Positions 1,747-63,339 of a stretch of 64,000 nucleotides of DNA are shown here, piece by piece; the first letter of the stretch is position 1, and every line of letters begins with the position of its first letter. Source of the stretch: Escherichia coli (lineage in GTDB: Bacteria > Pseudomonadota > Gammaproteobacteria > Enterobacterales > Enterobacteriaceae); NCBI RefSeq assembly GCF_002854065.1, contig NZ_CP024147.1. One strand, 5' to 3'. Position numbers and translations under genes: made by a program. Below the pieces are notes generated by a model. The model saw only the letters and a program-made list of their open reading frames with translations. It was not told the origin of the DNA and did no database searches.

Positions 1747-2799
1747 TCAGGCGATAGTAATTTTGCTATCGAGATAAACGTCCTGCACGGCGTTAATCAG
1801 TTTCACGCCGTCAGCCATCGATTTCTTGAACGCCTTACGTCCAAGAATCAGCCCCATTCCGCCAGCGCGTTTGTTGATAACCGCAGTACGCACTGCATCG
1901 CTGAGGTCAGTTTCACCGCCCGCAGCACCGCCGGAGTTTATCAACCCAGCCCGGCCCATATAGCAGTTAGCTAACTGATAACGCACCAGATCAATCGGGT
2001 TTTCGCTGGTCAATTTGCTGTAAACACGATCGTCGGTGTAACCGTAATTAATCGCTTTATAGCCGCCGTTATTTTCCGCCATTTTTTGTTTGACGATATC
2101 TGCACCTATGGTTGCCGCCAGATGGTTTGCCTGACCGGTCAGGTCGGCGGAAACATGGTAATCAACGCCATCTTTCTTAAAGGCGGAGTTACGCAAATAG
2201 GCCCACAGCACGGTCACCATGCCCAGCTCGTGCGCACGTTCAAAAGCCGCAGAAATTTCTTCAATCTGGCGACGTGACTCTTCCGAGCCAAAATAGATAG
2301 TCGCACCAACCGCCACCGCGCCCATGTTGAAAGCCTGCTCCACGCTGGCATACAGCGTTTGATCGTAGGTATTCGGGTAACTTAGCGTCTCGTTGTGATT
2401 AAGTTTGACGAGAAATGGAATGCGATGCGCATAGCGCCGCGATACCGACGCCAACACGCCGTAAGTTGATGCCACACAGTTACAGCCCGCTTCGATCGCC
2501 AGTTCAACAATGTTTTTCGGGTCAAAGTAGAGCGGGTTAGCAGCAAATGAAGCTCCGGCAGAGTGCTCAACGCCCTGGTCAACCGGCAGAATAGAAAGAT
2601 ATCCTGTGCCAGCCAGACGCCCGGTGTTGTACAACGTCTGCATATTACGTAACACCGCTGGCGGGCGATTATTGTCAATCATTACGCGGTCTACGTAGTC
2701 ATGTCCGGGGAGATAAAGCTGGTCAGAAGGAATTGTCATACAACGGTGCTGTAAAAGGTTGTCGGCGTCTTTGCCAAGCAACTGCGCAATATCTGTCAT
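1747..2799 (-). CDS. fbaB: Fructose-bisphosphate aldolase, class I
   Basis: Translation [19 protein letters not shown]... (350 aa after trimming the 374-aa ORF to the internal Met) recognised as FbaB. Confidence 0.9.
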
Positions 2800-3055
2800 T
2801 ACTATGCTCCCGTAAATTCCGATTGGATATCGGCTATGGATTGTCCTGGCCCGCCTTTTGCGGGCAATCATAATCCTGGTCGTTACGGGCGAGTTTTTCC
2901 ATCTTTTGGATGTTTTTTCAGCGTTTTCTGTTGGCTCGATTCATCAGAAAAAATGTTAGCGCGGTCAAGTTTTCACCGTAAAGGTATTTAAAAGGTATTA
3001 TTAAGTAGTATTGTCATCGCGTACCTTACATTACCTGTCATGAAGGAATTAAAAG

Positions 3056-4333
3056 ATGAAAACAACAGCAAAGCTGTCGTTCATGATGTTTGTTGAATGG
3101 TTTATCTGGGGCGCGTGGTTTGTGCCATTGTGGTTGTGGTTAAGTAAAAGCGGTTTTAGTGCCGGAGAAATTGGCTGGTCGTATGCCTGTACCGCCATTG
3201 CGGCGATCCTGTCGCCAATTCTGGTTGGCTCCATCACTGACCGCTTTTTCTCGGCGCAAAAAGTGCTGGCGGTATTGATGTTCGCAGGCGCGCTGCTGAT
3301 GTATTTCGCTGCGCAACAGACCACTTTTGCCGGGTTCTTTCCGTTACTGCTGGCTTACTCTCTAACCTATATGCCGACCATTGCGCTGACTAACAGCATC
3401 GCTTTTGCCAACGTGCCGGATGTGGAGCGTGATTTCCCGCGCATTCGTGTGATGGGCACTATCGGCTGGATTGCCTCCGGTCTGGCATGTGGTTTCTTGC
3501 CGCAAATACTGGGGTATGCCGATATCTCACCGACTAACATCCCGCTGCTGATTACCGCCGGAAGTTCTGCTCTGCTCGGTGTGTTTGCGTTTTTCCTGCC
3601 CGACACGCCACCAAAAAGCACCGGCAAAATGGATATTAAAGTCATGCTCGGCCTGGATGCGCTGATCCTACTGCGCGATAAAAACTTCCTCGTCTTTTTC
3701 TTCTGTTCATTCCTGTTTGCGATGCCACTGGCGTTCTATTACATCTTTGCCAACGGTTATCTGACCGAAGTCGGCATGAAAAATGCCACCGGCTGGATGA
3801 CGCTCGGCCAGTTCTCTGAAATATTCTTTATGCTGGCATTACCGTTTTTCACTAAACGCTTTGGTATCAAAAAGGTATTATTGCTTGGTCTGGTCACCGC
3901 TGCGATCCGCTATGGCTTCTTTATTTACGGTAGTGCGGATGAATATTTCACCTACGCGTTACTGTTCCTCGGTATTTTGCTTCACGGCGTAAGTTACGAT
4001 TTTTACTACGTTACCGCTTACATCTATGTCGATAAAAAAGCCCCCGTGCATATGCGTACCGCCGCGCAGGGGCTGATCACGCTCTGCTGCCAGGGCTTCG
4101 GCAGTTTGCTCGGCTATCGTCTTGGCGGTGTGATGATGGAAAAGATGTTCGCTTATCAGGAACCGGTAAACGGACTGACTTTCAACTGGTCCGGGATGTG
4201 GACTTTTGGCGCGGTGATGATTGCCATTATCGCCGTGCTGTTCATGATTTTTTTCCGCGAATCCGACAACGAAATTACGGCTATCAAGGTCGATGATCGC
4301 GATATTGCGTTGACACAAGGGGAAGTTAAATGA
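3056..4333 (+). CDS. yegT: Putative nucleoside transporter (MFS, NHS family)
   Basis: 425-aa polytopic membrane ORF, MKTTAKLSFMMFVEWFIWGAWFVPLWLW..., recognised as YegT; position after fbaB. Confidence 0.85.
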   Translation: MKTTAKLSFMMFVEWFIWGAWFVPLWLWLSKSGFSAGEIGWSYACTAIAAILSPILVGSITDRFFSAQKVLAVLMFAGALLMYFAAQQTTFAGFFPLLLAYSLTYMPTIALTNSIAFANVPDVERDFPRIRVMGTIGWIASGLACGFLPQILGYADISPTNIPLLITAGSSALLGVFAFFLPDTPPKSTGKMDIKVMLGLDALILLRDKNFLVFFFCSFLFAMPLAFYYIFANGYLTEVGMKNATGWMTLGQFSEIFFMLALPFFTKRFGIKKVLLLGLVTAAIRYGFFIYGSADEYFTYALLFLGILLHGVSYDFYYVTAYIYVDKKAPVHMRTAAQGLITLCCQGFGSLLGYRLGGVMMEKMFAYQEPVNGLTFNWSGMWTFGAVMIAIIAVLFMIFFRESDNEITAIKVDDRDIALTQGEVK

Positions 4334-5334
4334 AAACAGAACGTATTCTCGGTGCTCTTTATGGGCAGGCGTTAGGGGATGCGATGGGGATGCCCTCCGA
4401 GCTTTGGCCACGCAGCCGCGTTAAAGCACACTTTGGCTGGATTGACCGTTTTCTGCCTGGACCAAAGGAGAATAACGCGGCCTGTTATTTTAACCGCGCC
4501 GAATTCACCGACGATACCTCGATGGCGCTGTGTCTGGCGGATGCGTTGCTGGAACGTAAAGGCAAGATCGATCCGGATCTGATTGGGCGTAATATCCTCG
4601 ACTGGGCGCTGCGTTTCGACGCCTTCAACAAAAACGTGCTAGGTCCGACCTCGAAGATTGCGCTTAACGCCATTCGCGACGGTAAACCCGTTGCTGAACT
4701 GGAAAACAACGGCGTAACCAACGGCGCAGCGATGCGCGTCTCGCCATTAGGTTGTTTGCTTCCGGCGCGCGATGTTGATTCTTTTATTGATGATGTGGCG
4801 CTGGCGTCGAGCCCGACCCATAAATCCGATCTGGCAGTTGCAGGTGCGGTAGTCATCGCATGGGCGATTTCTCGTGCTATTGACGGAGAAAGCTGGTCAG
4901 CGATTGTTGATTCACTGCCTTCAATTGCGCGACATGCCCAGCAAAAACGCACCACCACGTTCAGCGCCTCACTGGCGGCGCGGCTGGAGATTGCGCTGAA
5001 AATTGTGCGCAATGCCGACGGCACCGAATCCGCCAGCGAACAGCTTTACCAGGTCGTTGGCGCAGGTACCAGCACTATTGAGTCCGTTCCGTGCGCCATT
5101 GCGCTGGTTGAACTGGCACAAACCGACCCGAACCGTTGCGCCGTCCTCTGCGCTAACCTTGGCGGCGATACAGACACCATCGGTGCTATGGCGACGGCAA
5201 TCTGCGGCGCGTTGCATGGCATTAACGCTATCGATCCTGCGTTAAAGGCGGAGCTGGATGCGGTAAATCAGCTTGATTTCAACCGCTATGCCACAGCGCT
5301 GGCGAAATATCGTCAACAACGGGAGGCGGTATGA
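4330..5334 (+). CDS. yegU: ADP-ribosylglycohydrolase family protein
   Basis: 334-aa ORF with ADP-ribosylglycohydrolase-like features (LGDAMGMP... and DTDTIGAMA motifs); overlaps yegT stop by 4 nt. Confidence 0.8.
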   Translation: MKTERILGALYGQALGDAMGMPSELWPRSRVKAHFGWIDRFLPGPKENNAACYFNRAEFTDDTSMALCLADALLERKGKIDPDLIGRNILDWALRFDAFNKNVLGPTSKIALNAIRDGKPVAELENNGVTNGAAMRVSPLGCLLPARDVDSFIDDVALASSPTHKSDLAVAGAVVIAWAISRAIDGESWSAIVDSLPSIARHAQQKRTTTFSASLAARLEIALKIVRNADGTESASEQLYQVVGAGTSTIESVPCAIALVELAQTDPNRCAVLCANLGGDTDTIGAMATAICGALHGINAIDPALKAELDAVNQLDFNRYATALAKYRQQREAV

Positions 5335-8751: not shown

Positions 8752-9536
8752 GCCTGCACCTCCTGCGTCAATTGCCAGAGCGCATCAAGGAAATGTGGAA
8801 CAAAACTGCCTGGCCCCTCGCTTCTGGCGACTGCGCGTTCTCCGGCTTGTTTCATCCAGTGACAGGCAGATGCGACATTTTCCAGCGTATCGCCTGGTAA
8901 CGCACAGCAGGCAGCGACAACCGCCGATAATGCACAGCCAGTTCCTACCACTTTGGTCATTAACGGATCGCCACCGTGAATACCAATGATACGATGTCCA
9001 TCGGTAACATAATCCATCTCGCCAGTGACCACGACGATTGCGCCAGTTTCCCGTGCCAGTGTTTGTGCAGCGGGTATCGCGTTAGCTGCGGCGTCAGTGG
9101 TATCCACTCCCCGTCCACCATTAGCAATGCCAGCTAATGCCATGATTTCCGAAGCATTACCACGTATCGCTGCCGGTTTAAAAGATAAAAGTTCATGACA
9201 AAAATGGCGGCGATAATCGAGCGCACCAACCGCTACTGGATCAAGCGTCCAGGGTGTTTGAGAGCTTTTTGCTTGCTCAACGGCAGCACGCATCGCCTGA
9301 GCGCGTGGCTGCGTCAGTGTGCCAACGTTAATCAACAAGGCACTGGCGATAGCCGCAAACTGACTGGCCTCTTCGGTTTCGATAACCATCGCTGGCGATG
9401 CACCGAGCGCCAGCAAGGTATTGGCGGTAAAGGTTTGCACCACATCATTGGTCATGCAGTGCACAAGAGGGGAATGTTGGTGAAAAAGGTGTAACGCGTG
9501 CGCAGATTGCGCTGAACCCAGCAGGTCGACTTGCAT
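8748..9536 (-). CDS. thiM: Hydroxyethylthiazole kinase
   Basis: 262-aa [37 protein letters not shown]... recognised as ThiM; 4-nt overlap with thiD. Confidence 0.9.
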
Positions 9537-9544
9537 AGTTTGCT

Positions 9545-9665
9545 CCTGCCATAACGTGAAGAAGCAATGACCTGGTGGTCCGTGACTTCCCTACGCTGGC
9601 ATTATCCAGATCAGGTGATACGGGTATTTCTCAGCCTTCACGCAGAAGGGCACCCCGAGTCGTTT
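9545..9665 (-). promoter_or_regulatory. TPP riboswitch (THI element) in the thiM leader
   Basis: Minus-strand sequence ...ggggtgcccttctgcgtgaaggctgagaaatacccgtatcacctgatctggataatgccagcgtagggaag... immediately upstream of the thiM ATG matches the thiM TPP aptamer as recalled. Confidence 0.85.
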
Positions 9666-9758
9666 GGTTGCGATGATAAATCGCAGAGGAGGATGGTAAT
9701 GTCCAGCGCACGCGTTGTAAACGAGGAAAAACGGCAGTTTTACAATCGCGTTAATAAA

Positions 9759-10031
9759 TTATTTGATATATGAATCCAGCACCTTCAGAACGACATCCAG
9801 ATCTTCTTCACGTTTTAGCTCATCCCCCTGGTGAACGATGTGTTCCGTCAGATGACCTTTAATCACTTCCCGCATCAGACCGTTTACCGCGCCACGGATA
9901 GCAGCAATCTGTTGTAAAACTGCAGCGCATTCGTGCGGCTCGTCGAGCATTTTCTTGAGCGCCACGACCTGGCCCTGAATCTTACTGGCACGCGCTTTCA
10001 GTTTCTGTTTATCACGGATTGTATGAGACAT
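9759..10031 (-). CDS. rcnR: Ni/Co-responsive transcriptional repressor (CsoR/RcnR family)
   Basis: 90-aa [52 protein letters not shown]... recognised as RcnR. Confidence 0.9.
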
Positions 10032-10077
10032 GGCAACACCTGGTTAACAAGAATATGAAAAATCATAGCACTATTAA

Positions 10078-10112
10078 TCTACTGGGGGGTAGTATCAGGT
10101 ACTGGGGGGGAG
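10078..10112. promoter_or_regulatory. Two RcnR operator sites (TACT-G6/7-N-AGTA) in rcnR-rcnA divergent promoter
   Basis: tactggggggtagta at 10078-10092 and tactgggggggagta at 10098-10112; G-tract inverted repeats of the type described for RcnR binding. Confidence 0.75.
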
Positions 10113-10151
10113 TAGAATCAGATTGCCGAATTAATACTAAGAATTATTATC

Positions 10152-10976
10152 ATGACCGAATTTACAACTCTTCTTCAGCAAGGAAACGCCTGGTTCTTCA
10201 TCCCCAGCGCCATCTTACTTGGTGCGCTTCATGGCCTGGAACCAGGGCACTCAAAAACGATGATGGCGGCGTTTATCATCGCCATCAAAGGCACCATTAA
10301 ACAAGCGGTGATGCTCGGACTGGCAGCAACTATTTCGCATACCGCAGTGGTCTGGTTAATTGCCTTTGGCGGGATGGTGATCAGCAAGCGCTTTACTGCT
10401 CAATCAGCAGAACCGTGGCTCCAGCTGATTTCCGCAGTGATCATTATTAGCACCGCGTTCTGGATGTTCTGGCGTACCTGGCGCGGCGAACGCAACTGGC
10501 TGGAGAATATGCACGGGCATGATTATGAGCATCATCATCACGATCACGAACATCACCACGACCATGGACATCATCACCATCACGAACATGGCGAGTATCA
10601 GGATGCCCATGCACGAGCCCATGCCAATGACATTAAACGACGCTTTGATGGTAGAGAGGTCACCAACTGGCAAATTTTGTTATTTGGCTTAACCGGTGGC
10701 CTTATCCCCTGCCCGGCAGCAATTACCGTGCTGTTGATATGCATTCAGTTGAAAGCCCTGACACTGGGCGCAACACTGGTCGTCAGTTTCAGCATTGGCC
10801 TGGCGTTAACGCCTGTCACCGTAGGCGTTGGCGCAGCAATCAGCGTTCAGCAGGTCGCAAAACGCTGGAGCGGATTTAACACTCTCGCTAAACGCGCCCC
10901 CTATTTTTCCAGTCTGTTGATTGGCTTAGTCGGTGTGTATATGGGCGTACATGGCTTCATGGGCATAATGCGATAA
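10152..10976 (+). CDS. rcnA: Nickel/cobalt efflux membrane protein with His-rich loop
   Basis: 274-aa ORF with HGHDYEHHHHDHEHHHDHGHHHHHEHGEY histidine-rich segment and NiCoT-like transmembrane regions. Confidence 0.9.
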   Translation: MTEFTTLLQQGNAWFFIPSAILLGALHGLEPGHSKTMMAAFIIAIKGTIKQAVMLGLAATISHTAVVWLIAFGGMVISKRFTAQSAEPWLQLISAVIIISTAFWMFWRTWRGERNWLENMHGHDYEHHHHDHEHHHDHGHHHHHEHGEYQDAHARAHANDIKRRFDGREVTNWQILLFGLTGGLIPCPAAITVLLICIQLKALTLGATLVVSFSIGLALTPVTVGVGAAISVQQVAKRWSGFNTLAKRAPYFSSLLIGLVGVYMGVHGFMGIMR

Positions 10977-11194
10977 CTCAATCCTTTAGGCTTGCATGTT
11001 ATCTTCAGCCCAGGATGATTCTTAAATCAGCTATTTCCGCTGACTCTCTGCTCGCTAAGGATGCTTTTAGGGCATCCTTTCATTTACACTTTTTACGAAA
11101 TCATGGGATCACTAACAAAATATCGCTTGTCAGTTATATTGTATGGCAGGAAAGATATGCGACTGATATTACAGATCCCCAAAGTGGAGAGTTT

Positions 11195-11533
11195 ATGACC
11201 ATTAAAAATAAGATGTTGCTGGGTGCGCTTTTGCTGGTTACCAGTGCCGCCTGGGCCGCACCAGCCACCGCGGGTTCGACCAATACCTCGGGAATTTCTA
11301 AGTATGAGTTAAGCAGTTTCATTGCTGACTTTAAGCATTTCAAACCAGGCGATACCGTCCCAGAGATGTACCGCACCGATGAGTACAACATTAAGCAGTG
11401 GCAGTTACGTAACCTGCCCGCGCCTGATGCCGGGACGCACTGGACCTATATGGGTGGCGCGTACGTGTTGATCAGCGACACCGACGGTAAAATCATTAAA
11501 GCCTACGACGGTGAGATTTTTTATCATCGCTAA
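11195..11533 (+). CDS. rcnB: Periplasmic Ni/Co homeostasis protein
   Basis: Translation MTIKNKMLLGALLLVTSAAWAAPA... with signal peptide; 112 aa after trimming the 172-aa ORF. Confidence 0.85.
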   Translation: MTIKNKMLLGALLLVTSAAWAAPATAGSTNTSGISKYELSSFIADFKHFKPGDTVPEMYRTDEYNIKQWQLRNLPAPDAGTHWTYMGGAYVLISDTDGKIIKAYDGEIFYHR

Positions 11534-11558
11534 AAAAAGCCCCCTCATCATGAGGGGG
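11532..11558 (-). terminator. Stem-loop with U-run on the minus strand (candidate rho-independent terminator)
   Basis: gccccctcatcatgagggggc hairpin; on the minus strand it is followed by a T7 run. Confidence 0.5.
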
Positions 11559-11614
11559 AAATGCAGACACCTTGTTATTTTTTATTATTAGCCACTTGCT
11601 CGTCTTGCTTGTTA

Positions 11615-11761
11615 TTAGTCGTATTTCACGTTGATTAATGCGGTTGCCTCCAGTGCGCCAGATTTAATTTTATTTGTATCGTAGACGTAGTAACTGGCTG
11701 TTATCGGAATTGAAACCGTTGTATCTGTAAGTTTTGACTTTGCCGCAATTTCTTTTAAATT
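11615..11761 (-). pseudogene. yehA: 3' remnant of a fimbrial-subunit-like gene (yehA position) truncated by IS1
   Basis: Minus-strand frame reads ...NLKEIAAKSKLTDTTVSIPITASYYVYDTNKIKSGALEATALINVKYD* and runs open into the IS1 end at 11764; gene identity inferred from position next to rcnB. Confidence 0.5.
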
Positions 11762-11778
11762 TGGGTAATGACTCCAAC

Positions 11779-12282
11779 TTATTGATAGTGTTTTATGTTC
11801 AGATAATGCCCGATGACTTTGTCATGCAGCTCCACCGATTTTGAGAACGACAGCGACTTCCGTCCCAGCCGTGCCAGGTGCTGCCTCAGATTCAGGTTAT
11901 GCCGCTCAATTCGCTGCGTATATCGCTTGCTGATTACGTGCAGCTTTCCCTTCAGGCGGGATTCATACAGCGGCCAGCCATCCGTCATCCATATCACCAC
12001 GTCAAAGGGTGACAGCAGGCTCATAAGACGCCCCAGCGTCGCCATAGTGCGTTCACCGAATACGTGCGCAACAACCGTCTTCCGGAGCCTGTCATACGCG
12101 TAAAACAGCCAGCGCTGGCGCGATTTAGCCCCGACGTATCCCCACTGTTCGTCCATTTCCGCGCAGACGATGACGTCACTGCCCGGCTGTATGCGCGAGG
12201 TTACCGACTGCGGCCTGAGTTTTTTAAATGGCGGAAAATCGTGTTGAGGCCAACGCCCATAATGCGGGCGGTTGCCCGGCAT
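11779..12282 (-). CDS. insB: IS1 InsB reading frame (transposase made as InsAB' by -1 frameshift)
   Basis: 167-aa ORF ...[54 protein letters not shown]... recognised as InsB; overlaps insA 3' end. Confidence 0.9.
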
Positions 12283-12476
12283 CCAACGCCATTCATGGCC
12301 ATATCAATGATTTTCTGGTGCGTACCGGGTTGAGAAGCGGTGTAAGTGAACTGCAGTTGCCATGTTTTACGGCAGTGAGAGCAGAGATAGCGCTGATGTC
12401 CGGCAGTGCTTTTGCCGTTACGCACCACCCCGTCAGTAGCTGAACAGGAGGGACAGCTGATAGAAACAGAAGCCAC
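12201..12476 (-). CDS. insA: IS1 InsA protein
   Basis: 91-aa [46 protein letters not shown]... recognised as InsA. Confidence 0.95.
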
Positions 12477-12600
12477 TGGAGCACCTCAAAAACACCATCA
12501 TACACTAAATCAGTAAGTTGGCAGCATCACCGACTTTGTAGAGTTTCGGACGAAGGTCCGCAGAATATTCGCAGTATTAAATAAGTGTTCATTAATGCGG

Positions 12601-12642
12601 CAAAAACTAATACACCGCATCAATGTAACATCTCTGCGGTGT
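12601..12642 (-). terminator. Candidate rho-independent terminator downstream of mrp
   Basis: Inverted repeat acaccgca...tgcggtgt; on the minus strand followed by a T-rich run (rc of caaaaactaat). Confidence 0.55.
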
Positions 12643-12672
12643 ATGAAGAATAACCAGAATGGTTAATAGGCG

Positions 12673-13782
12673 TTAGACCGCGCGGAAGGAAATCTCGCCT
12701 GGAATGACTTCACCCTGCCAGTAGAGCTGAGCTGCAACGCGGTCAGCCAGCTGGCGGTAGATAGCGGTAAATTCGCTCTCCGGACGGCTGATAACCGTTG
12801 GCGTGCCTTTATCGAGATCCTCACGTAAGGAGATGTGTAACGGCATCTGCCCCAGCAGCTGTGTGTGGTATTTTTCAGCCAGTTTCTCTGCACCACCGGT
12901 ACCGAAAATCGGTTCATGGTGACCACAGTTACTGCAAATATGCACACTCATGTTCTCGACAATACCAAGCACCGGAACCTCGACTTTCTCGAACATCACA
13001 ATGCCTTTTTTCGCATCGATCAACGCGATGTCCTGCGGGGTGGTGACCACGACTGCACCAGTTACTGGAATGTTTTGCGCCAGCGTCAATTGAATGTCAC
13101 CGGTGCCTGGCGGCATATCAAGCACCAGATAGTCGAGATCCGGCCACAAGGTTTCCTGCAACATCTGCATTAACGCCTTGCTCGCCATCGGTCCACGCCA
13201 CACCATCGCATTGTCGTCAGTGACCAGATAACCAATTGAATTGGTTGCCAGGCCATGAGACATAATCGGTGCCATATGGGTACCGTCCGGCGAAGTTGGA
13301 CGCTGATTTTCTGCGCCCAGCATGGTGGGAATTGATGGGCCGTAGATATCGGCGTCCAGAATGCCGACTTTCGCCCCTTCCGCCGCCAGTGCCAGCGCCA
13401 GGTTTACCGCCGTGGAGGATTTACCCACGCCGCCTTTACCGGAACTGACCGCAATGATGTTCTTCACACCATTAATACCCGGCTGATTCTTCACGCGTTT
13501 TAAGGTGGCGATATTGTGCGACAGTTTCCAGTCGATAGCTTTCGCCCCGGTGATACGCAGCAGTTCGGCGCTACATTGCTCTTTTAACTCTTCAAACGCG
13601 CTATGCCAGACGAATGGCATAACCAGTTCCACATGCAACGTGTCGTCCATCCAGGCGACATGGTGCAACGCTTTCAGCGTGGTGAGGTTATGCTTCAGGG
13701 TTGGGTGCTGAAAATTGGCCAGTGTCCCGGCGACCATTGCGCGCAAGGCTTCTGGTGATTTGGCCTGGGATTGTTCGTTCAT
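12673..13782 (-). CDS. mrp: Fe-S cluster carrier ATPase (Mrp/ApbC/NBP35 family)
   Basis: Translation MNEQSQAKSPEALRAMVAGTLANFQHPTLKHNL... with Walker A GKGGVGKSS; 369 aa after start trimming. Confidence 0.9.
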   Translation of the reverse strand: MNEQSQAKSPEALRAMVAGTLANFQHPTLKHNLTTLKALHHVAWMDDTLHVELVMPFVWHSAFEELKEQCSAELLRITGAKAIDWKLSHNIATLKRVKNQPGINGVKNIIAVSSGKGGVGKSSTAVNLALALAAEGAKVGILDADIYGPSIPTMLGAENQRPTSPDGTHMAPIMSHGLATNSIGYLVTDDNAMVWRGPMASKALMQMLQETLWPDLDYLVLDMPPGTGDIQLTLAQNIPVTGAVVVTTPQDIALIDAKKGIVMFEKVEVPVLGIVENMSVHICSNCGHHEPIFGTGGAEKLAEKYHTQLLGQMPLHISLREDLDKGTPTVISRPESEFTAIYRQLADRVAAQLYWQGEVIPGEISFRAV

Positions 13783-13913
13783 CCCGACTCCTTTTTTGTA
13801 TAGATAAACCATCAGCTGATAGTTTACCTGAAGAATATAGAGAAGTACTTACTTAACATTTTCCCATTTGGTACTATCTAACCCCTTTTCACTATTAAGA
13901 AGTAATGCCTACT

Positions 13914-15947
13914 ATGACTCAAGTCGCGAAGAAAATTCTGGTGACGTGCGCACTGCCGTACGCTAACGGCTCAATCCACCTCGGCCATATGCTGGAGCAC
14001 ATCCAGGCTGATGTCTGGGTCCGTTACCAGCGAATGCGCGGCCACGAGGTCAACTTCATCTGCGCCGACGATGCCCACGGTACACCGATCATGCTGAAAG
14101 CTCAGCAGCTTGGTATCACCCCGGAGCAGATGATTGGCGAAATGAGTCAGGAGCATCAGACTGATTTCGCAGGCTTTAACATCAGCTATGACAACTATCA
14201 CTCGACGCACAGCGAAGAGAACCGCCAGTTGTCAGAACTTATCTACTCTCGCCTGAAAGAGAACGGTTTTATTAAAAACCGCACCATCTCTCAGCTGTAC
14301 GATCCGGAAAAAGGCATGTTCCTGCCGGACCGTTTTGTGAAAGGCACCTGCCCGAAATGTAAATCCCCGGATCAATACGGCGATAACTGCGAAGTCTGCG
14401 GCGCGACCTACAGCCCGACTGAATTGATCGAGCCGAAATCGGTGGTTTCTGGCGCTACGCCGGTAATGCGTGATTCTGAACACTTCTTCTTTGATCTGCC
14501 CTCTTTCAGCGAAATGTTGCAGGCATGGACCCGCAGCGGTGCGTTGCAGGAGCAGGTGGCAAATAAAATGCAGGAGTGGTTTGAATCCGGCCTGCAACAG
14601 TGGGATATCTCCCGCGACGCGCCATACTTTGGTTTTGAAATTCCGAACGCGCCGGGCAAATATTTCTACGTCTGGCTGGACGCACCGATTGGCTACATGG
14701 GTTCTTTCAAGAATCTGTGCGACAAGCGCGGCGACAGCGTAAGCTTCGATGAATACTGGAAGAAAGACTCCACCGCCGAGCTGTACCACTTCATCGGTAA
14801 AGATATTGTTTACTTCCACAGCCTGTTCTGGCCTGCCATGCTGGAAGGCAGCAACTTCCGCAAGCCGACCAACCTGTTTGTTCATGGCTATGTGACGGTG
14901 AACGGCGCAAAGATGTCCAAGTCTCGCGGCACCTTTATTAAAGCCAGCACCTGGCTGAATCATTTTGACGCTGACAGCCTGCGTTACTACTACACTGCGA
15001 AACTCTCTTCGCGCATTGATGATATCGATCTCAACCTGGAGGATTTCGTTCAGCGTGTGAATGCCGATATCGTGAACAAAGTGGTTAACCTGGCCTCTCG
15101 TAATGCGGGCTTTATCAACAAGCGTTTTGACGGCGTGCTGGCAAGCGAACTGGCTGACCCGCAGTTGTACAAAACCTTCACTGATGCCGCTGAAGTGATT
15201 GGTGAAGCGTGGGAAAGCCGCGAATTTGGTAAAGCAGTGCGCGAAATCATGGCGCTGGCTGATCTGGCTAACCGCTATGTCGACGAGCAGGCTCCGTGGG
15301 TGGTGGCAAAACAGGAAGGCCGCGATGCCGACCTGCAGGCAATTTGCTCAATGGGCATAAACCTGTTCCGCGTGCTGATGACTTACCTGAAGCCGGTACT
15401 GCCGAAACTGACCGAGCGCGCAGAAGCATTCCTCAATACAGAACTGACCTGGGATGGTATCCAGCAACCGCTGCTGGGCCACAAAGTGAATCCGTTCAAA
15501 GCGCTGTATAACCGCATCGATATGAAGCAGGTTGAAGCACTGGTGGAAGCATCTAAAGAAGAAGTGAAAGCAGCTGCCGCGCCAGTTACTGGCCCACTGG
15601 CAGATGATCCGATTCAGGAAACCATCACCTTTGACGACTTCGCAAAAGTTGACCTGCGCGTGGCGCTGATCGAAAACGCAGAGTTTGTTGAAGGTTCTGA
15701 CAAACTGCTGCGCCTGACACTGGATCTCGGCGGTGAAAAACGCAATGTCTTCTCCGGTATTCGTTCTGCCTACCCGGATCCGCAGGCACTGATCGGGCGT
15801 CACACCATTATGGTGGCCAACCTGGCGCCACGTAAAATGCGCTTTGGTATCTCCGAAGGCATGGTAATGGCTGCTGGTCCTGGCGGGAAAGATATCTTCC
15901 TGTTAAGCCCGGATGCTGGTGCTAAACCAGGCCATCAGGTGAAATAA
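13914..15947 (+). CDS. metG: Methionyl-tRNA synthetase
   Basis: Translation [38 protein letters not shown]... with HIGH and KMSKS motifs; 677 aa after start trimming. Confidence 0.95.
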
Positions 15948-15956
15948 TCCCCCTTC

Positions 15957-15986
15957 AAGGCGCTGCATCGACAGCGCCTTTTCTTT
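15957..15986 (+). terminator. Rho-independent terminator downstream of metG
   Basis: aaggcgctgcatcgacagcgcctt hairpin followed by ttctttat. Confidence 0.65.
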
Positions 15987-16034
15987 ATAAATTCCTAAAG
16001 TTGTTTTCTTGCGATTTTGGGTAATGACTCCAAC

Positions 16035-16538
16035 TTATTGATAGTGTTTTATGTTCAGATAATGCCCGATGACTTTGTCATGCAGCTCCACCGATTTTGA
16101 GAACGACAGCGACTTCCGTCCCAGCCGTGCCAGGTGCTGCCTCAGATTCAGGTTATGCCGCTCAATTCGCTGCGTATATCGCTTGCTGATTACGTGCAGC
16201 TTTCCCTTCAGGCGGGATTCATACAGCGGCCAGCCATCCGTCATCCATATCACCACGTCAAAGGGTGACAGCAGGCTCATAAGACGCCCCAGCGTCGCCA
16301 TAGTGCGTTCACCGAATACGTGCGCAACAACCGTCTTCCGGAGACTGTCATACGCGTAAAACAGCCAGCGCTGGCGCGATTTAGCCCCGACGTATCCCCA
16401 CTGTTCGTCCATTTCCGCGCAGACGATGACGTCACTGCCCGGCTGTATGCGCGAGGTTACCGACTGCGGCCTGAGTTTTTTAAATGGCGGAAAATCGTGT
16501 TGAGGCCAACGCCCATAATGCGGGCGGTTGCCCGGCAT
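16035..16538 (-). CDS. insB: IS1 InsB reading frame (copy 2)
   Basis: 167-aa ORF identical to copy 1 except one residue (YDSLRK vs YDRLRK). Confidence 0.9.
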
Positions 16539-16732
16539 CCAACGCCATTCATGGCCATATCAATGATTTTCTGGTGCGTACCGGGTTGAGAAGCGGTGTA
16601 AGTGAACTGCAGTTGCCATGTTTTACGGCAGTGAGAGCAGAGATAGCGCTGATGTCCGGCAGTGCTTTTGCCGTTACGCACCACCCCGTCAGTAGCTGAA
16701 CAGGAGGGACAGCTGATAGAAACAGAAGCCAC
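16457..16732 (-). CDS. insA: IS1 InsA protein (copy 2)
   Basis: 91-aa ORF identical in translation to copy 1 InsA. Confidence 0.95.
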
Positions 16733-16787
16733 TGGAGCACCTCAAAAACACCATCATACACTAAATCAGTAAGTTGGCAGCATCACC

Positions 16788-17282
16788 CTGCTGACGTTAT
16801 CCCTTCCGGCATCTGCCTGTTCTCCTTTTGCCGTTGAACGCATGGCGGCGCTTTTGCAACAAACAGACGACCCCGTGAGTCTGGTTTCTGGCTTTGTCAG
16901 CTTTGTAGAGGGGCAATTGACACTGGAACCACGGGTGATGATGACAAAAACCCGTGCCTGGGCGCTGGACGCGGAAACTGCGCCTGTGGCACCGCTACCT
17001 TCTGCCAGCGTTTTGCCTGTGCCGTCTACCGCTCATCAGTTGCTGATGCGCTGCCAGGCGTTACTTATTCAACTGCTCCATAACGGCTGGCGCTATCAGG
17101 AACAGAGCGCTATTAGTCAGGCAGAGTTGCTGGCGAATGACCTCACCGCGGTGGGTTTTTATCGGCTGGCACATGTGTTGGCACAATTTCGTAATACAGA
17201 AAGCGAGGCACGGGTAGAAGCAATGAATAACGGTGTTTTGCTTTGCGAACAATTATTCCCCATGCTTCAGCAACAAGGATGA
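16788..17282 (+). pseudogene. yehQ: 3' fragment of the gene upstream of yehR (yehQ position), truncated at its 5' side by IS1
   Basis: Plus-strand frame is open from the first base after the IS1 end (16788) through ORF 16842..17282; no start context or promoter; identity inferred from position. Confidence 0.45.
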
Positions 17283-17406
17283 AATAGTGCTTTTTACTAA
17301 GAGTTCTACTCCAGTTCCGGACTGCTCACACCACGGTATTAGGCATATCCTATATAGCCCCTGGTGAGAGTCACCAGTTTCTTGATTAAATAAAATGGAG
17401 TTTTAC

Positions 17407-17868
17407 ATGAAGGCTTTCAATAAGCTGTTTTCCCTCGTTGTTGCATCTGTTCTGGTTTTCTCTCTTGCTGGCTGCGGTGACAAAGAAGAATCGAAGAAAT
17501 TCAGCGCCAATCTGAACGGCACTGAAATTGCCATTACCTATGTCTACAAAGGTGACAAAGTGCTTAAGCAATCTTCTGAAACCAAAATTCAATTTGCCTC
17601 CATTGGTGCAACCACCAAAGAAGATGCTGCCAAGACACTTGAGCCGTTAAGCGCCAAATACAAAAACATCGCGGGTGTTGAAGAAAAATTAACCTATACC
17701 GATACCTACGCGCAGGAAAACGTGACTATCGATATGGAAAAAGTGGATTTTAAAGCCCTGCAGGGTATTTCAGGAATCAACGTTTCTGCTGAAGATGCCA
17801 AAAAAGGTATCACTATGGCGCAAATGGAACTGGTGATGAAAGCCGCTGGTTTTAAAGAAGTGAAATAA
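17407..17868 (+). CDS. yehR: Lipoprotein of unknown function (DUF1307 family)
   Basis: Translation MKAFNKLFSLVVASVLVFSLAGCGDKEE... with lipobox LAGC; 153 aa after start trimming. Confidence 0.85.
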   Translation: MKAFNKLFSLVVASVLVFSLAGCGDKEESKKFSANLNGTEIAITYVYKGDKVLKQSSETKIQFASIGATTKEDAAKTLEPLSAKYKNIAGVEEKLTYTDTYAQENVTIDMEKVDFKALQGISGINVSAEDAKKGITMAQMELVMKAAGFKEVK

Positions 17869-17908
17869 TCTGTCGGCGGCCATGTTTCGCATGGCCGCCA
17901 TACCCGTC

Positions 17909-18379
17909 TTAGCTTTTCTTCACATGCTGGCGCGCTGCCAGTCCACGCAGAAAATAACGTAAAAATTGATCGCCGCATTCGCGGAAGTTTTTATGATCCG
18001 GTGCGCGCATCATCGCTGTAATTTCCGGCATCGAAACGCGGAACTGCTGTTCGGTGAGGATAGCCAGAATGTCATCGGTTTTCAGCGAAAACGCGATGCG
18101 TAATTTTTTCAGCACGATGTTGTTATTAATGCGACGTTCCGGCTCCAGTGCCGGAGCAGACTCATCCTTGCCGCGTTTTTCATAAATCAGGCCATTGAGG
18201 AATGACGACAAAACAATGTCCGGACAACGCTGAAAACCCTCTTCGTCTTCTTTACGTAGCCAGACGGCGATCTGTTCCGCGGTGGCTTCGACATTACCCA
18301 GCGCCAGAATACGCACCAGGTCATTATTATTGGCTTTCAAAATGTAGCGCACGCTACGCAGAATATCGTTACTTAGCAT
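17909..18379 (-). CDS. yehS: DUF1456-family protein
   Basis: Translation MLSNDILRSVRYILKANNNDLVRILALGNVEATAEQIAVWLRKEDEEG...; 156 aa after start trimming. Confidence 0.8.
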   Translation of the reverse strand: MLSNDILRSVRYILKANNNDLVRILALGNVEATAEQIAVWLRKEDEEGFQRCPDIVLSSFLNGLIYEKRGKDESAPALEPERRINNNIVLKKLRIAFSLKTDDILAILTEQQFRVSMPEITAMMRAPDHKNFRECGDQFLRYFLRGLAARQHVKKS

Positions 18380-31095: not shown

Positions 31096-31268
31096 GATGA
31101 GCATTCAGATAGTGGTTCACGCGCACGGGTTGCGCACCGCCGGAGTAAGGATTTACTGAGGCTAGCGACGCCATCATAACGAGCAAAAAGTGCGATCGTC
31201 AAAGGAGAATCGTGAGGAAATGCTGCATTGCTGACATTTACGCCAGCAATGCAACGTCAAAGAACTTT

Positions 31269-58901: not shown

Positions 58902-60152
58902 CTACGCTAAACCAATAAAGAACCCGGCAATGGTGGCACTCATCAGATTAGAAAGTGTCGCCGCCGCCAGCGCGCGTAAACCAAGCTGGGCGATTTCCGG
59001 CGCACGGTGTGGCGCAACCGCAGAAAACGCCCCCACCACCACCCCGATAGAACCAAAGTTAGCGAAACCGCACAACGCGAAGGAAATAATCGCCACGGTT
59101 TTTGCATCGAGAGTGCCAGCTGTTTGCAGATAGGGTGAGAAATTGAGATAAGCGACAAATTCATTTATTGCCAGTTTCTGTCCAATCAAACTCCCGGCAA
59201 GATTCGCATCAGTCCAGTCAACACCCATTACCCACGCCAGTGGGGCCAGCAGGTAACCTAAAATGGACTCCAGCGAGGCATGTTCAAAACCAAACCAGCC
59301 GCCAACGCCGCCGATAATACCGTTAATTAACGCAATGATGGCAACAAATGCCATCACCACTGTTGCCACACCCGCAGCGATTTTCAGCCCGGTCATCGCC
59401 CCTGTCGCGGCGGCTTCAATAATGCTTTTTGGCGGTGTTTCGGTGAAAGAGAGGTTATTAAAAGAAACCTGCGAAGATTCCGTAGCCGGGCTTAGCATGC
59501 GGGCAAACAAGATCCCGCCGGGGATCGCCATTAACGATGCCGCCAGCAAATATTCCACAGGCACGCCCAGTGCGGCGTAACCAATCATCGTCGAACCAGC
59601 AATTGAGGCCATGCCACTACAAATCGCTGTAAATAACTCATTGCGATTCAGCCGATCGATAAAGGGTTTGACGATTGCCGGAATTTCGTTTTGCCCGAGG
59701 AAAATGGTAGTGACCGCGACGAATGACTCGATCTTGCTGATATTTAACGCTTTCTGGAAGATACCGCCGAGAATGCGAATTAAGATCCCCATCACACCGA
59801 TGTAATAGAGAATACTCACCAGCGCGGTGACGAAGATAATTGCCGGTAACACCCTGAAACCAAAGATAAATCCTGCGCCATCAAACAGCGTGTCCATTTT
59901 CGGCCCGACCAGCGAACCGAAGATAAATGCGCTACCTGCATCGCTGTACGCCATCACTTTATGCACGCCAAAAGCGACTTTTTCAGCGACCCAACGCCCT
60001 GGCGGTAACCAAAGCATAATCCCGCCAATCACAACCTGTAACACTAACGCCGCGCCAACGGTACGCAGGCTGATCTTCTTCTTGTTTACTGACAGTAAAA
60101 ACGCAATCGTCAGCAATACCACCATTCCCAGAACACTTCTCATGACATCCAT
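58902..60152 (-). CDS. nupX: NupC-family concentrative nucleoside transporter
   Basis: 416-aa polytopic ORF MDVMRSVLGMVVLLTIAFLLSVNKKKISLRTVGAAL...; paralogue of psuT in this window. Confidence 0.9.
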   Translation of the reverse strand: MDVMRSVLGMVVLLTIAFLLSVNKKKISLRTVGAALVLQVVIGGIMLWLPPGRWVAEKVAFGVHKVMAYSDAGSAFIFGSLVGPKMDTLFDGAGFIFGFRVLPAIIFVTALVSILYYIGVMGILIRILGGIFQKALNISKIESFVAVTTIFLGQNEIPAIVKPFIDRLNRNELFTAICSGMASIAGSTMIGYAALGVPVEYLLAASLMAIPGGILFARMLSPATESSQVSFNNLSFTETPPKSIIEAAATGAMTGLKIAAGVATVVMAFVAIIALINGIIGGVGGWFGFEHASLESILGYLLAPLAWVMGVDWTDANLAGSLIGQKLAINEFVAYLNFSPYLQTAGTLDAKTVAIISFALCGFANFGSIGVVVGAFSAVAPHRAPEIAQLGLRALAAATLSNLMSATIAGFFIGLA

Positions 60153-62088: not shown

Positions 62089-63339
62089 TCAAGCTAAACC
62101 AATAAAGAACCCGGCAATGGTCGCGCTCATCAGGTTGGAAAGCGTTGCTGCTGCCAGCGCCCGTAAACCAAGCTGGGCGATTTCCGGAGCACGTTTTGGC
62201 GAAATAGCCGAAAATGCCCCAACGACAACACCGATAGAACCAAAGTTAGCAAAACCACAAAGCGCAAAGGAGATAATCGCAATGGTTTTCACTTCCAGCG
62301 TGCCGCCCGTTTGCAGGTATGGGGAGAAACTCAGGTAAGCGACGAATTCGTTAATCGCCAGTTTCTGCCCAATCAGGCTACCCGCAAGGTTGGCATCACT
62401 CCAGTCCACACCCATGATCCACGCCAGCGGTGCCAGCACATAGCCAAAAATACTTTCCAGAGAAGCATTGGCGAAGCCAAACCAGCCGCCAATTCCGCCG
62501 ATAATGCCATTGATCAGCGCAATAATTGCCACAAATGCCATTACCACCGTCGCCACACCAGCGGCGATTTTCAGCCCGGTCATCGCACCGCTCGCCGCCG
62601 CTTCGATAAAGCTTTTTGGCGGCGTTTCGCTGAACGACAGATTTTCAAATGTGACCTGCGAAGGCTCGGTTGCCGGGCTAAGAATACGTGCAAACAAAAT
62701 CCCGCCAGGGATCGCCATCAGCGATGCCGCTAACAGGTAGTCAATTGGTACGCCCATTCCGGCATAACCAATCATCATCGAACCCGCAATGGACGCCATC
62801 CCGCTACAAATTGCGGTAAACAACTCGTTGCGATTCATGCGATCGATAAACGGTTTAACGATCGCCGGGATCTCATTTTGCCCGAGGAAAATAGTGGTAA
62901 CCGCAACAAAAGATTCGATTTTGCTGATGTTGAGGGCTTTCTGGAAAATGCTACCAAGGATGCGAATCAGCAGCCCCATCACGCCAATGTAGTACAGCAG
63001 ACTAATGAGCGCAGTGACGAAGATAATCGCCGGGAGTACGCGAAAGGCGAAGATAAAACCCGCACCGTCAAAGAGGACATCCATTTTCGGCCCGACCAGC
63101 GAACCAAAAATGAAGGCGCTACCGGCATCACTGTAAGACATCACTTTATGAACGCCTAATGCCGCCTGTTCTACAGCCCACTTTCCCGGCGGAAAATAGA
63201 GCATGATGCCACCAATAGCAATTTGCAGCAGTAGTGCGGCTCCAACCGTACGCAAACTGATGCTCTTTTTATTCACTGACAACAGAAATGCTATTGCCAG
63301 TAACACCACCATCCCCACAACACTTCTCATTATGTCCAT
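62089..63339 (-). CDS. psuT: NupC-family pseudouridine/nucleoside transporter
   Basis: 416-aa polytopic ORF MDIMRSVVGMVVLLAIAFLLSVNKKSISLRTVGAALLLQIA...; immediately upstream of psuG. Confidence 0.9.
   Translation of the reverse strand: MDIMRSVVGMVVLLAIAFLLSVNKKSISLRTVGAALLLQIAIGGIMLYFPPGKWAVEQAALGVHKVMSYSDAGSAFIFGSLVGPKMDVLFDGAGFIFAFRVLPAIIFVTALISLLYYIGVMGLLIRILGSIFQKALNISKIESFVAVTTIFLGQNEIPAIVKPFIDRMNRNELFTAICSGMASIAGSMMIGYAGMGVPIDYLLAASLMAIPGGILFARILSPATEPSQVTFENLSFSETPPKSFIEAAASGAMTGLKIAAGVATVVMAFVAIIALINGIIGGIGGWFGFANASLESIFGYVLAPLAWIMGVDWSDANLAGSLIGQKLAINEFVAYLSFSPYLQTGGTLEVKTIAIISFALCGFANFGSIGVVVGAFSAISPKRAPEIAQLGLRALAAATLSNLMSATIAGFFIGLA

Follow-up and report, generated by a model that had tools for sequence, protein, structure and literature searches.

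At position 16,788 of a 64,000-nucleotide stretch of Escherichia coli DNA (contig NZ_CP024147.1; the whole stretch is called the window here), a plus-strand reading frame opens with the first nucleotide after an IS1 element and runs to a stop codon at 17282. This raises the questions of which gene the frame belongs to, how it came to abut an insertion sequence, and whether it is expressed. The explanation that accounts for the locus as a whole, and that is held with high confidence, is that the frame is a non-functional remnant of yehQ made by IS1, which was left when about 14.2 kb were lost, likely by an adjacent deletion, and which is expected to be silent.

The plus-strand frame at 16788-17282 translates into 164 sense codons followed by a stop. 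Together with the exact ends of the IS1 element, this agrees with the original prediction of a frame that is open from the first nucleotide after the left inverted repeat (IRL) of IS1 to the stop at 17282. The predicted 165 codons to the stop were also correct, but the accompanying length of 165 aa was not, as the translation has 164 aa. The frame remains open for another 15 nt upstream, inside IS1, where an in-frame TAA is located at 16770-16772, and the first ATG, GTG or TTG within the remnant frame is the ATG at 16842. Using BLASTP, the remnant aligned to residues 503-614 of K-12 YehQ with 93% identity over 112 aa (E 3e-70) and, over its whole length, to the 666-aa YehQ of strain 2012EL-2448 (residues 503-666, 98% identity, E 5e-114). 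Both the suggested alignment to the K-12 protein and the full-length comparison therefore point to yehQ, as had been proposed, and no other gene was matched. At the nucleotide level, all 495 nt of the remnant match the 3' end of the intact yehQ of strain ECONIH4 with 100% identity.

The remnant (yehQ', 16788..17282, plus strand) comprises codons 503-666 and the stop codon of the 666-aa SWIM zinc-finger protein YehQ, whose N-terminus is missing. The break between IS1 and yehQ lies exactly between codons 502 and 503, with the remnant beginning at yehQ nt 1507, and for this reason the frame looks open from its first nucleotide; the position of the break at a codon boundary is a coincidence. As in strains with an intact yehQ, 124 nt separate the stop at 17282 from the yehR ATG at 17407, and the downstream synteny continues with yehR, yehS, btsR and btsS. 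With YehQ (b2122 in E. coli), the remnant shares the identity of 98% and the native position upstream of yehR. In contrast to it, only the last 25% of the gene is kept, and the start, the SWIM domain and the neighbours yehL, yehM and yehP are deleted. In the undeleted arrangement, the adjacent genes yehL (MoxR-type AAA+ ATPase), yehM (DUF5682), yehP (VWA) and yehQ lie on the same strand, with yehQ as the last one.

With uniform codon use, an open frame of 164 codons would arise by chance with a probability of about 4e-4, but chance is not really at issue since the 495 nt are identical to the intact ECONIH4 gene. The idea that the frame is a chance ORF, or that the IS1 junction is an assembly artefact, was refuted and is given practically no credence. 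It conflicts with the identity of 98-100% to yehQ and with the recurrence of the same junction in two independently assembled complete genomes, CUWW06 from Thailand and 100416 from The Gambia.

Sequence searches of the remnant returned no Pfam or NCBIfam domain, and a PDB sequence search with the fragment and with full-length YehQ returned no related solved structure. The sole domain match of the full-length protein is SWIM (PF04434) at aa 56-88, which is in the deleted part. Since the remnant has no SWIM domain and starts at codon 503, it is considered a pseudogene fragment and not a functional member of the YehQ family. In both carriers, CUWW06 and 100416, PGAP annotates it as a partial pseudogene ('incomplete; missing N-terminus'), and in this sense the remnant is already known, as an annotated partial pseudogene in two public genomes (RefSeq). 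The complete nucleotide identity to the intact ECONIH4 allele means that there has been no decay since the truncation.

The comparison with K-12 covers only 112 residues, about two thirds of the fragment, because the K-12 gene stops at codon 615. This stop is due to a private GAG to TAG change (equivalent to window position 17127), which leaves a product of 614 aa compared to 666 aa elsewhere. The last 52 residues of the remnant can therefore be compared with non-K-12 alleles only, and K-12 yehQ is, like the remnant, a defective allele. Allelic variation was also seen at the 5' end of the remnant, where the first 41 nt or so (16788-16830) show 11 differences from the K-12 and the SY3626/GDSC2227PM alleles and match the 2012EL-2448 and ECONIH4-type alleles. 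SY3626 is 99.8% identical to the window downstream of yehR, yet at the yehQ remnant it shows 39 differences over about 633 aligned positions. These allele comparisons suggest that yehQ may be a recombination mosaic.

The IS1 element next to the remnant, copy 2 in the window (16020..16787, minus strand), is an IS1B-like element of 768 bp with exact terminal repeats at both ends and intact insA/insB' genes in the frameshift arrangement; it is annotated by PGAP as an IS1B family transposase. It begins 72 nt after the metG stop codon, with the right inverted repeat (IRR) at its left end and the IRL (16765-16787) at its right end. The IRL directly abuts 16788 because insA/insB' are on the minus strand and the IRL is next to insA. 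Copy 2 is not flanked by a 9-bp target-site duplication, its flanks being GCGATTTTG and CTGCTGACG. The other element, copy 1 (11764-12531, minus strand), is joined to a remnant of yehA; it also has 768 bp and two exact terminal repeats, and no 9-bp target-site duplication was found between its flanks TTAAATTTG and GACTTTGTA. Both copies are in direct orientation and differ by 1 nt. At this position, 16344, copy 2 of the window has a private A, which turns residue 65 of InsB' from Arg to Ser; copy 1 has a C here, as does copy 2 in both CUWW06 and 100416.

A colinear comparison with K-12 MG1655 (locus L003) shows what is missing at the two elements. Window positions 9000-11763 correspond to K-12 positions 1766-4529, ending with the last 149 nt of yehA; positions 12532-16019 correspond to 9918-13406, with apbC, metG and the 72 nt that follow the stop codon of metG; and the window from 16788 onward corresponds to K-12 from 27607 onward, that is, yehQ from nt 1507. 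At copy 2, about 14.2 kb are absent compared to K-12, comprising yehF, yehH, yehI, yehK, yehL, yehM, yehP and codons 1-502 of yehQ. At copy 1, 5,388 bp are absent, comprising the 5' part of yehA, yehB, yehC, yehD and yehE. The yehA remnant (11615..11763, minus strand; K-12 L003 4381-4529) consists of the last 149 nt of this fimbrial adhesin gene and appears in the PGAP annotation as 'fimbrial protein, missing N-terminus'. The genes apbC (mrp; 12673..13782, minus strand) and metG (methionine-tRNA ligase; 13914..15947, plus strand) are kept between the two IS1 copies, and the deletions end just 3' of them, at 142 nt past apbC and 72 nt past metG. The original prediction had taken the yehA and yehQ remnants as the bounds of a single deletion. 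This part has to be replaced by two separate deletions with apbC and metG kept in between, and the yehQ remnant fixes the right-hand boundary of the second deletion, the one of about 14.2 kb, only.

In about 85-93 complete E. coli genomes, two-piece matches placed an IS1 no more than a few hundred bp away from the same yehA and yehE positions, which makes the yeh fimbrial operon a recurrent IS1 target, too. As in a Tn9-type composite, two direct and near-identical IS1 copies surround apbC-metG (11764-16787, 5,024 bp). Unlike the cargo of such a composite, these genes have their native chromosomal location, and no duplication is shared between the outer flanks TTAAATTTG and CTGCTGACG. A Tn9-like transposon IS1-apbC-metG-IS1 was rejected based on this native context and the missing outer duplication, and the unit looks like a by-product of the two flanking deletions. 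Recombination between the two IS1 copies would delete metG.

For the origin of the larger deletion, an adjacent deletion by IS1 is the favoured route, with moderate confidence. An IS1 resident 72 nt downstream of metG would have attacked, with its IRL end, a nearby target in yehQ on the same molecule by intramolecular replicative transposition. The intervening 14.2 kb or so would have been lost with the IS1 staying in place, and a target-site duplication would be absent. We infer this step from the signature at the locus, in which an intact IS1 is kept, the deletion is one-sided and colinear, and the direct repeats are lost. PMC9330008, citing Turlan & Chandler 1995, presents adjacent deletions with loss of the direct repeats as typical of IS1 and Tn9, and a general description of deletions by intramolecular replicative transposition is given in PMC11708052. 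The same analysis did find duplications at simple IS1 insertions that served as controls, namely CTACTCCAG in 2012EL-2448 and CAGATCTT in SY3626. With IS1 adjacent deletions, the window shares a complete 768-bp IS1 at a novel joint, the one-sided colinear loss and the lack of 9-bp repeats; in contrast, its presumed precursor insertion was found in 0 of 5426 complete genomes.

The precursor search was based on two synthetic junctions, one with IS1 between codons 502 and 503 of yehQ and one with IS1 72 nt past metG with yehF kept. Among the 5426 complete genomes, neither the simple insertion in yehQ at codon 502/503 nor the insertion at metG+72 with yehF retained was found in any. The order of events given above is therefore inferred. 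It also means that RecA-dependent homologous recombination between two direct IS1 copies, one at metG+72 and one at codon 502/503 of yehQ, remains a live rival, which would have excised the 14.2 kb together with one IS1. This route, too, would leave one intact IS1 whose flanks do not match and carry no duplication, and material for it is plentiful, with at least 40 IS1-matching places per genome in CUWW06 and 100416 and frequent IS1 insertions around the locus. Nevertheless, it is considered rather doubtful. The reciprocal junction between the 5' part of yehQ and IS1 occurs in no complete genome, and the sole two matches that reach 80% coverage are artefacts joined from two pieces, with the IS1 located between yehQ and yehR. 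The simple insertion at metG+72 was likewise present in no genome, and strain GDSC2227PM would need another pre-existing IS1 in yehL.

In GDSC2227PM, an IS1 is found at the identical left joint (metG+72) and its right end joins nt 8 of yehL. This fits an IS1 that is anchored, or has repeatedly inserted, past the metG terminator and that gives rise to rightward deletions of varied length. The GDSC2227PM element differs from copy 2 at 8 positions. Because of these mismatches, the shared left joint could reflect an insertion hot spot and not common ancestry. The metG side is not a universal anchor either, since other lineages have different left junctions.

The junction between IS1 and yehQ' was detected in 2 of the 5426 complete E. 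coli genomes, CUWW06 from wastewater in Thailand and 100416 from stool in The Gambia. Both are colinear with the window, with 5-7 mismatches over 13.5-16.2 kb, and both also carry IS1 copy 1 with the yehA stub. Due to this colinearity, the few mismatches and the presence of both IS1 joints in all of them, the window strain, CUWW06 and 100416 are regarded as one clone. The junction event is real and inherited. The gene itself is found in about 98% of the complete genomes: of 5426 genomes, 5323 contain the 5' 1506 nt of yehQ at a coverage of at least 80%, and 5340 contain the 3' 495 nt at the same coverage. As yehQ is nearly universal, its loss is rare and lineage-specific.

SY3626, which is 99.8% identical over 24.7 kb, is the closest relative that lacks the joint. 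Its yehQ is intact, yehM contains an IS421, yehF is truncated by an IS1, and yehH, yehI and yehK are not annotated. The yehF-yehQ island is decaying in several ways. SY3626 also has a simple IS1 insertion in rcnR, with the duplication CAGATCTT. Another simple insertion was found in the yehQ-yehR intergenic region of 2012EL-2448 (locus L002, 9528-10295), with the 9-bp duplication CTACTCCAG, and insertions of this type, 24-32 nt downstream of the yehQ stop, occur in roughly 49 complete genomes. The 49 records that matched the junction at 92% coverage were rejected as further carriers; in them, the simple IS1 insertion between yehQ and yehR had been merged by piece-joining.

Whether the remnant is expressed depends on signals at the junction and upstream of it. 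A standard scan of 15850-17950 found no sigma-70-like promoter on the plus strand, in line with the description of the fragment as promoterless. The sole site in this range is a promoter-like site in the IRL of IS1 on the minus strand (16753..16780, CTGCCA-16-TATGAT), which points toward insA and away from yehQ'. The fragment had also been described as having no start context of its own, and this was corroborated at the ATG at 16842: there is no Shine-Dalgarno pairing and no usable ribosome-binding site, the duplex energy with the anti-Shine-Dalgarno sequence being 0 over the 20 nt upstream. This ATG, which corresponds to Met521 of YehQ, starts the longest ORF with a canonical start codon in the remnant (16842..17282, plus strand, 146 aa, including the MAALLQQTDDPVSLVSGFVSFVEGQLTLEPR region). 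Upstream, the metG gene is followed by a terminator-like hairpin (15957..15980, plus strand) of 9 bp, 6 of them G-C, and a T-rich tract, which would be expected to block most read-through toward IS1 and yehQ'.

The reading in which the remnant is nevertheless expressed, either from a fusion promoter or by read-through, as an active C-terminal peptide of 146 aa, or in which the IS1 end drives yehR, is judged highly improbable. There is precedent for such promoters. According to Table 1 of PMC9330008, which cites Prentki et al. 1986, IS1 insertions can create functional fusion promoters, and the examples named there are blaTEM-1, blaTEM-6 and acrEF. The junction shares with them an outward -35-like hexamer in the IS1 end, TTGGCA at 16774-16779 in the IRL, which matches TTGACA at 5 of 6 positions and lies 8 nt from the end of IS1. 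In a relaxed scan, this hexamer was combined after 18 nt with TATCCC in yehQ' to give a weak candidate IS1/flank fusion promoter (16774..16803, plus strand, TTGGCA-18-TATCCC). In contrast to the documented cases, the flanking yehQ sequence does not provide an acceptable, correctly spaced -10 element: TATCCC, the best partner, agrees with the consensus at 3 of 6 positions, without the conserved T at position 6, and the candidate fails the standard criteria. A fusion promoter at this junction would accordingly be a poor one. The undecayed reading frame could also be taken as a sign of use. However, the lack of decay is attributed to the recent origin of the truncation, as there are 5-7 SNPs per 13-16 kb among the carriers. 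The missing Shine-Dalgarno pairing at 16842, the loss of the SWIM domain and of the adjacent yehL, yehM and yehP, and the treatment of the remnant as a pseudogene by PGAP all argue against an active product.

Silence is thus the expected state, since the start codon, the ribosome-binding site, the promoter of the presumed operon, the SWIM domain and the adjacent genes yehL, yehM and yehP have been lost. Judging from its sequence context, the remnant would either not be expressed or, at best, be carried along by stray transcription. For genome annotation, this is a reminder not to call the 146-aa ORF at 16842-17282 as a gene.

The downstream lipoprotein gene yehR (17407..17868, plus strand) is intact and has its native upstream intergenic region of 124 nt. 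The sequence upstream of yehR is identical to that of CUWW06 and has two intergenic differences compared to K-12. As this native sequence is kept, yehR is probably unaffected by the deletion. Between the yehQ stop and the yehR start, there is a terminator-like hairpin of 7 bp with a T-run (17361..17377, plus strand), which is unchanged compared to K-12 and precedes the yehR start codon by only about 30 nt. The hairpin either ends the yehQ transcript, leaving scant room for a yehR promoter, or sits in the 5' leader of yehR. Neither the standard nor the relaxed scan located a yehR promoter, and no Rfam family was found in 15800-17900. Elsewhere in the window, two Rfam matches exceeded the gathering score, one to a TPP riboswitch that precedes thiM (9571-9667, minus strand) and one to a Peptidase-S11 RNA motif (31100-31180, minus strand), both of which are expected features of this chromosomal region. 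A direct repeat at 58906-59205 and 62093-62392, 82% identical, represents the paralogous nucleoside transporter genes nupX and psuT.

Deletions with an IS1 at the joint are not restricted to this clone, and the interval from metG to yehR shows at least five different IS1 deletion joints in different lineages. In the E308 group, with nine complete genomes, the left joint is at yehF nt 80 and the right joint at yehQ nt 1916, leaving a yehQ stub of 85 nt. In NT1F34, the deletion extends from yehF nt 487 to yehL nt 742, and in AR_0369 from yehF nt 135 to yehI nt 2624. The IS1 joints of the E308 group, NT1F34 and AR_0369 are all without a target duplication and are independent of the deletion in the window. 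The E308-type remnant resembles the one in the window in being a promoterless 3' stub of yehQ upstream of yehR with the same IS1 orientation, but it differs in its IS1 isoform, which is 91.5% identical, in the left joint inside yehF, and in the 85 nt of yehQ remaining. Throughout the examined loci, which are a small sample, every single-IS1 deletion in metG-yehR has the same IS1 orientation, with the IRL toward yehR. The IS1 isoforms at these same-orientation joints differ, with identities of 91.5-99.6%, and AR_0369 has a second IS1 in the opposite orientation. Both apbC and metG were kept in every locus examined.

The proteins encoded by the yehF-yehQ island have WGR, DUF4132, MoxR AAA+, DUF5682, VWA and SWIM content. 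A PADLOC search of YehF, YehI, YehL, YehM, YehP and YehQ matched no known anti-phage defence family, and the deleted island can therefore not be assigned to a described defence system. Literature searches on yehQ, on yehL/yehM/yehP and on yehR returned mostly unrelated text matches, with no functional or promoter data found. That the repeated erosion by IS1 reflects selection for the loss of yehF-yehQ in some lineages, as opposed to neutral IS1 activity, is considered unlikely. If it were true, the yehQ stub would be the trace of an adaptive gene loss.

If anything at the locus is of some interest, it is the recurrent erosion by IS1 on both sides of apbC-metG. The yehQ remnant itself is an ordinary scar by which a 14.2-kb loss associated with IS1 in one E. 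coli clone is dated and delimited, and its joint with IS1 provides a clone-specific junction marker. Beyond this clone, it is one data point for a near-universal yehF-yehQ island that is recurrently eroded by IS1.
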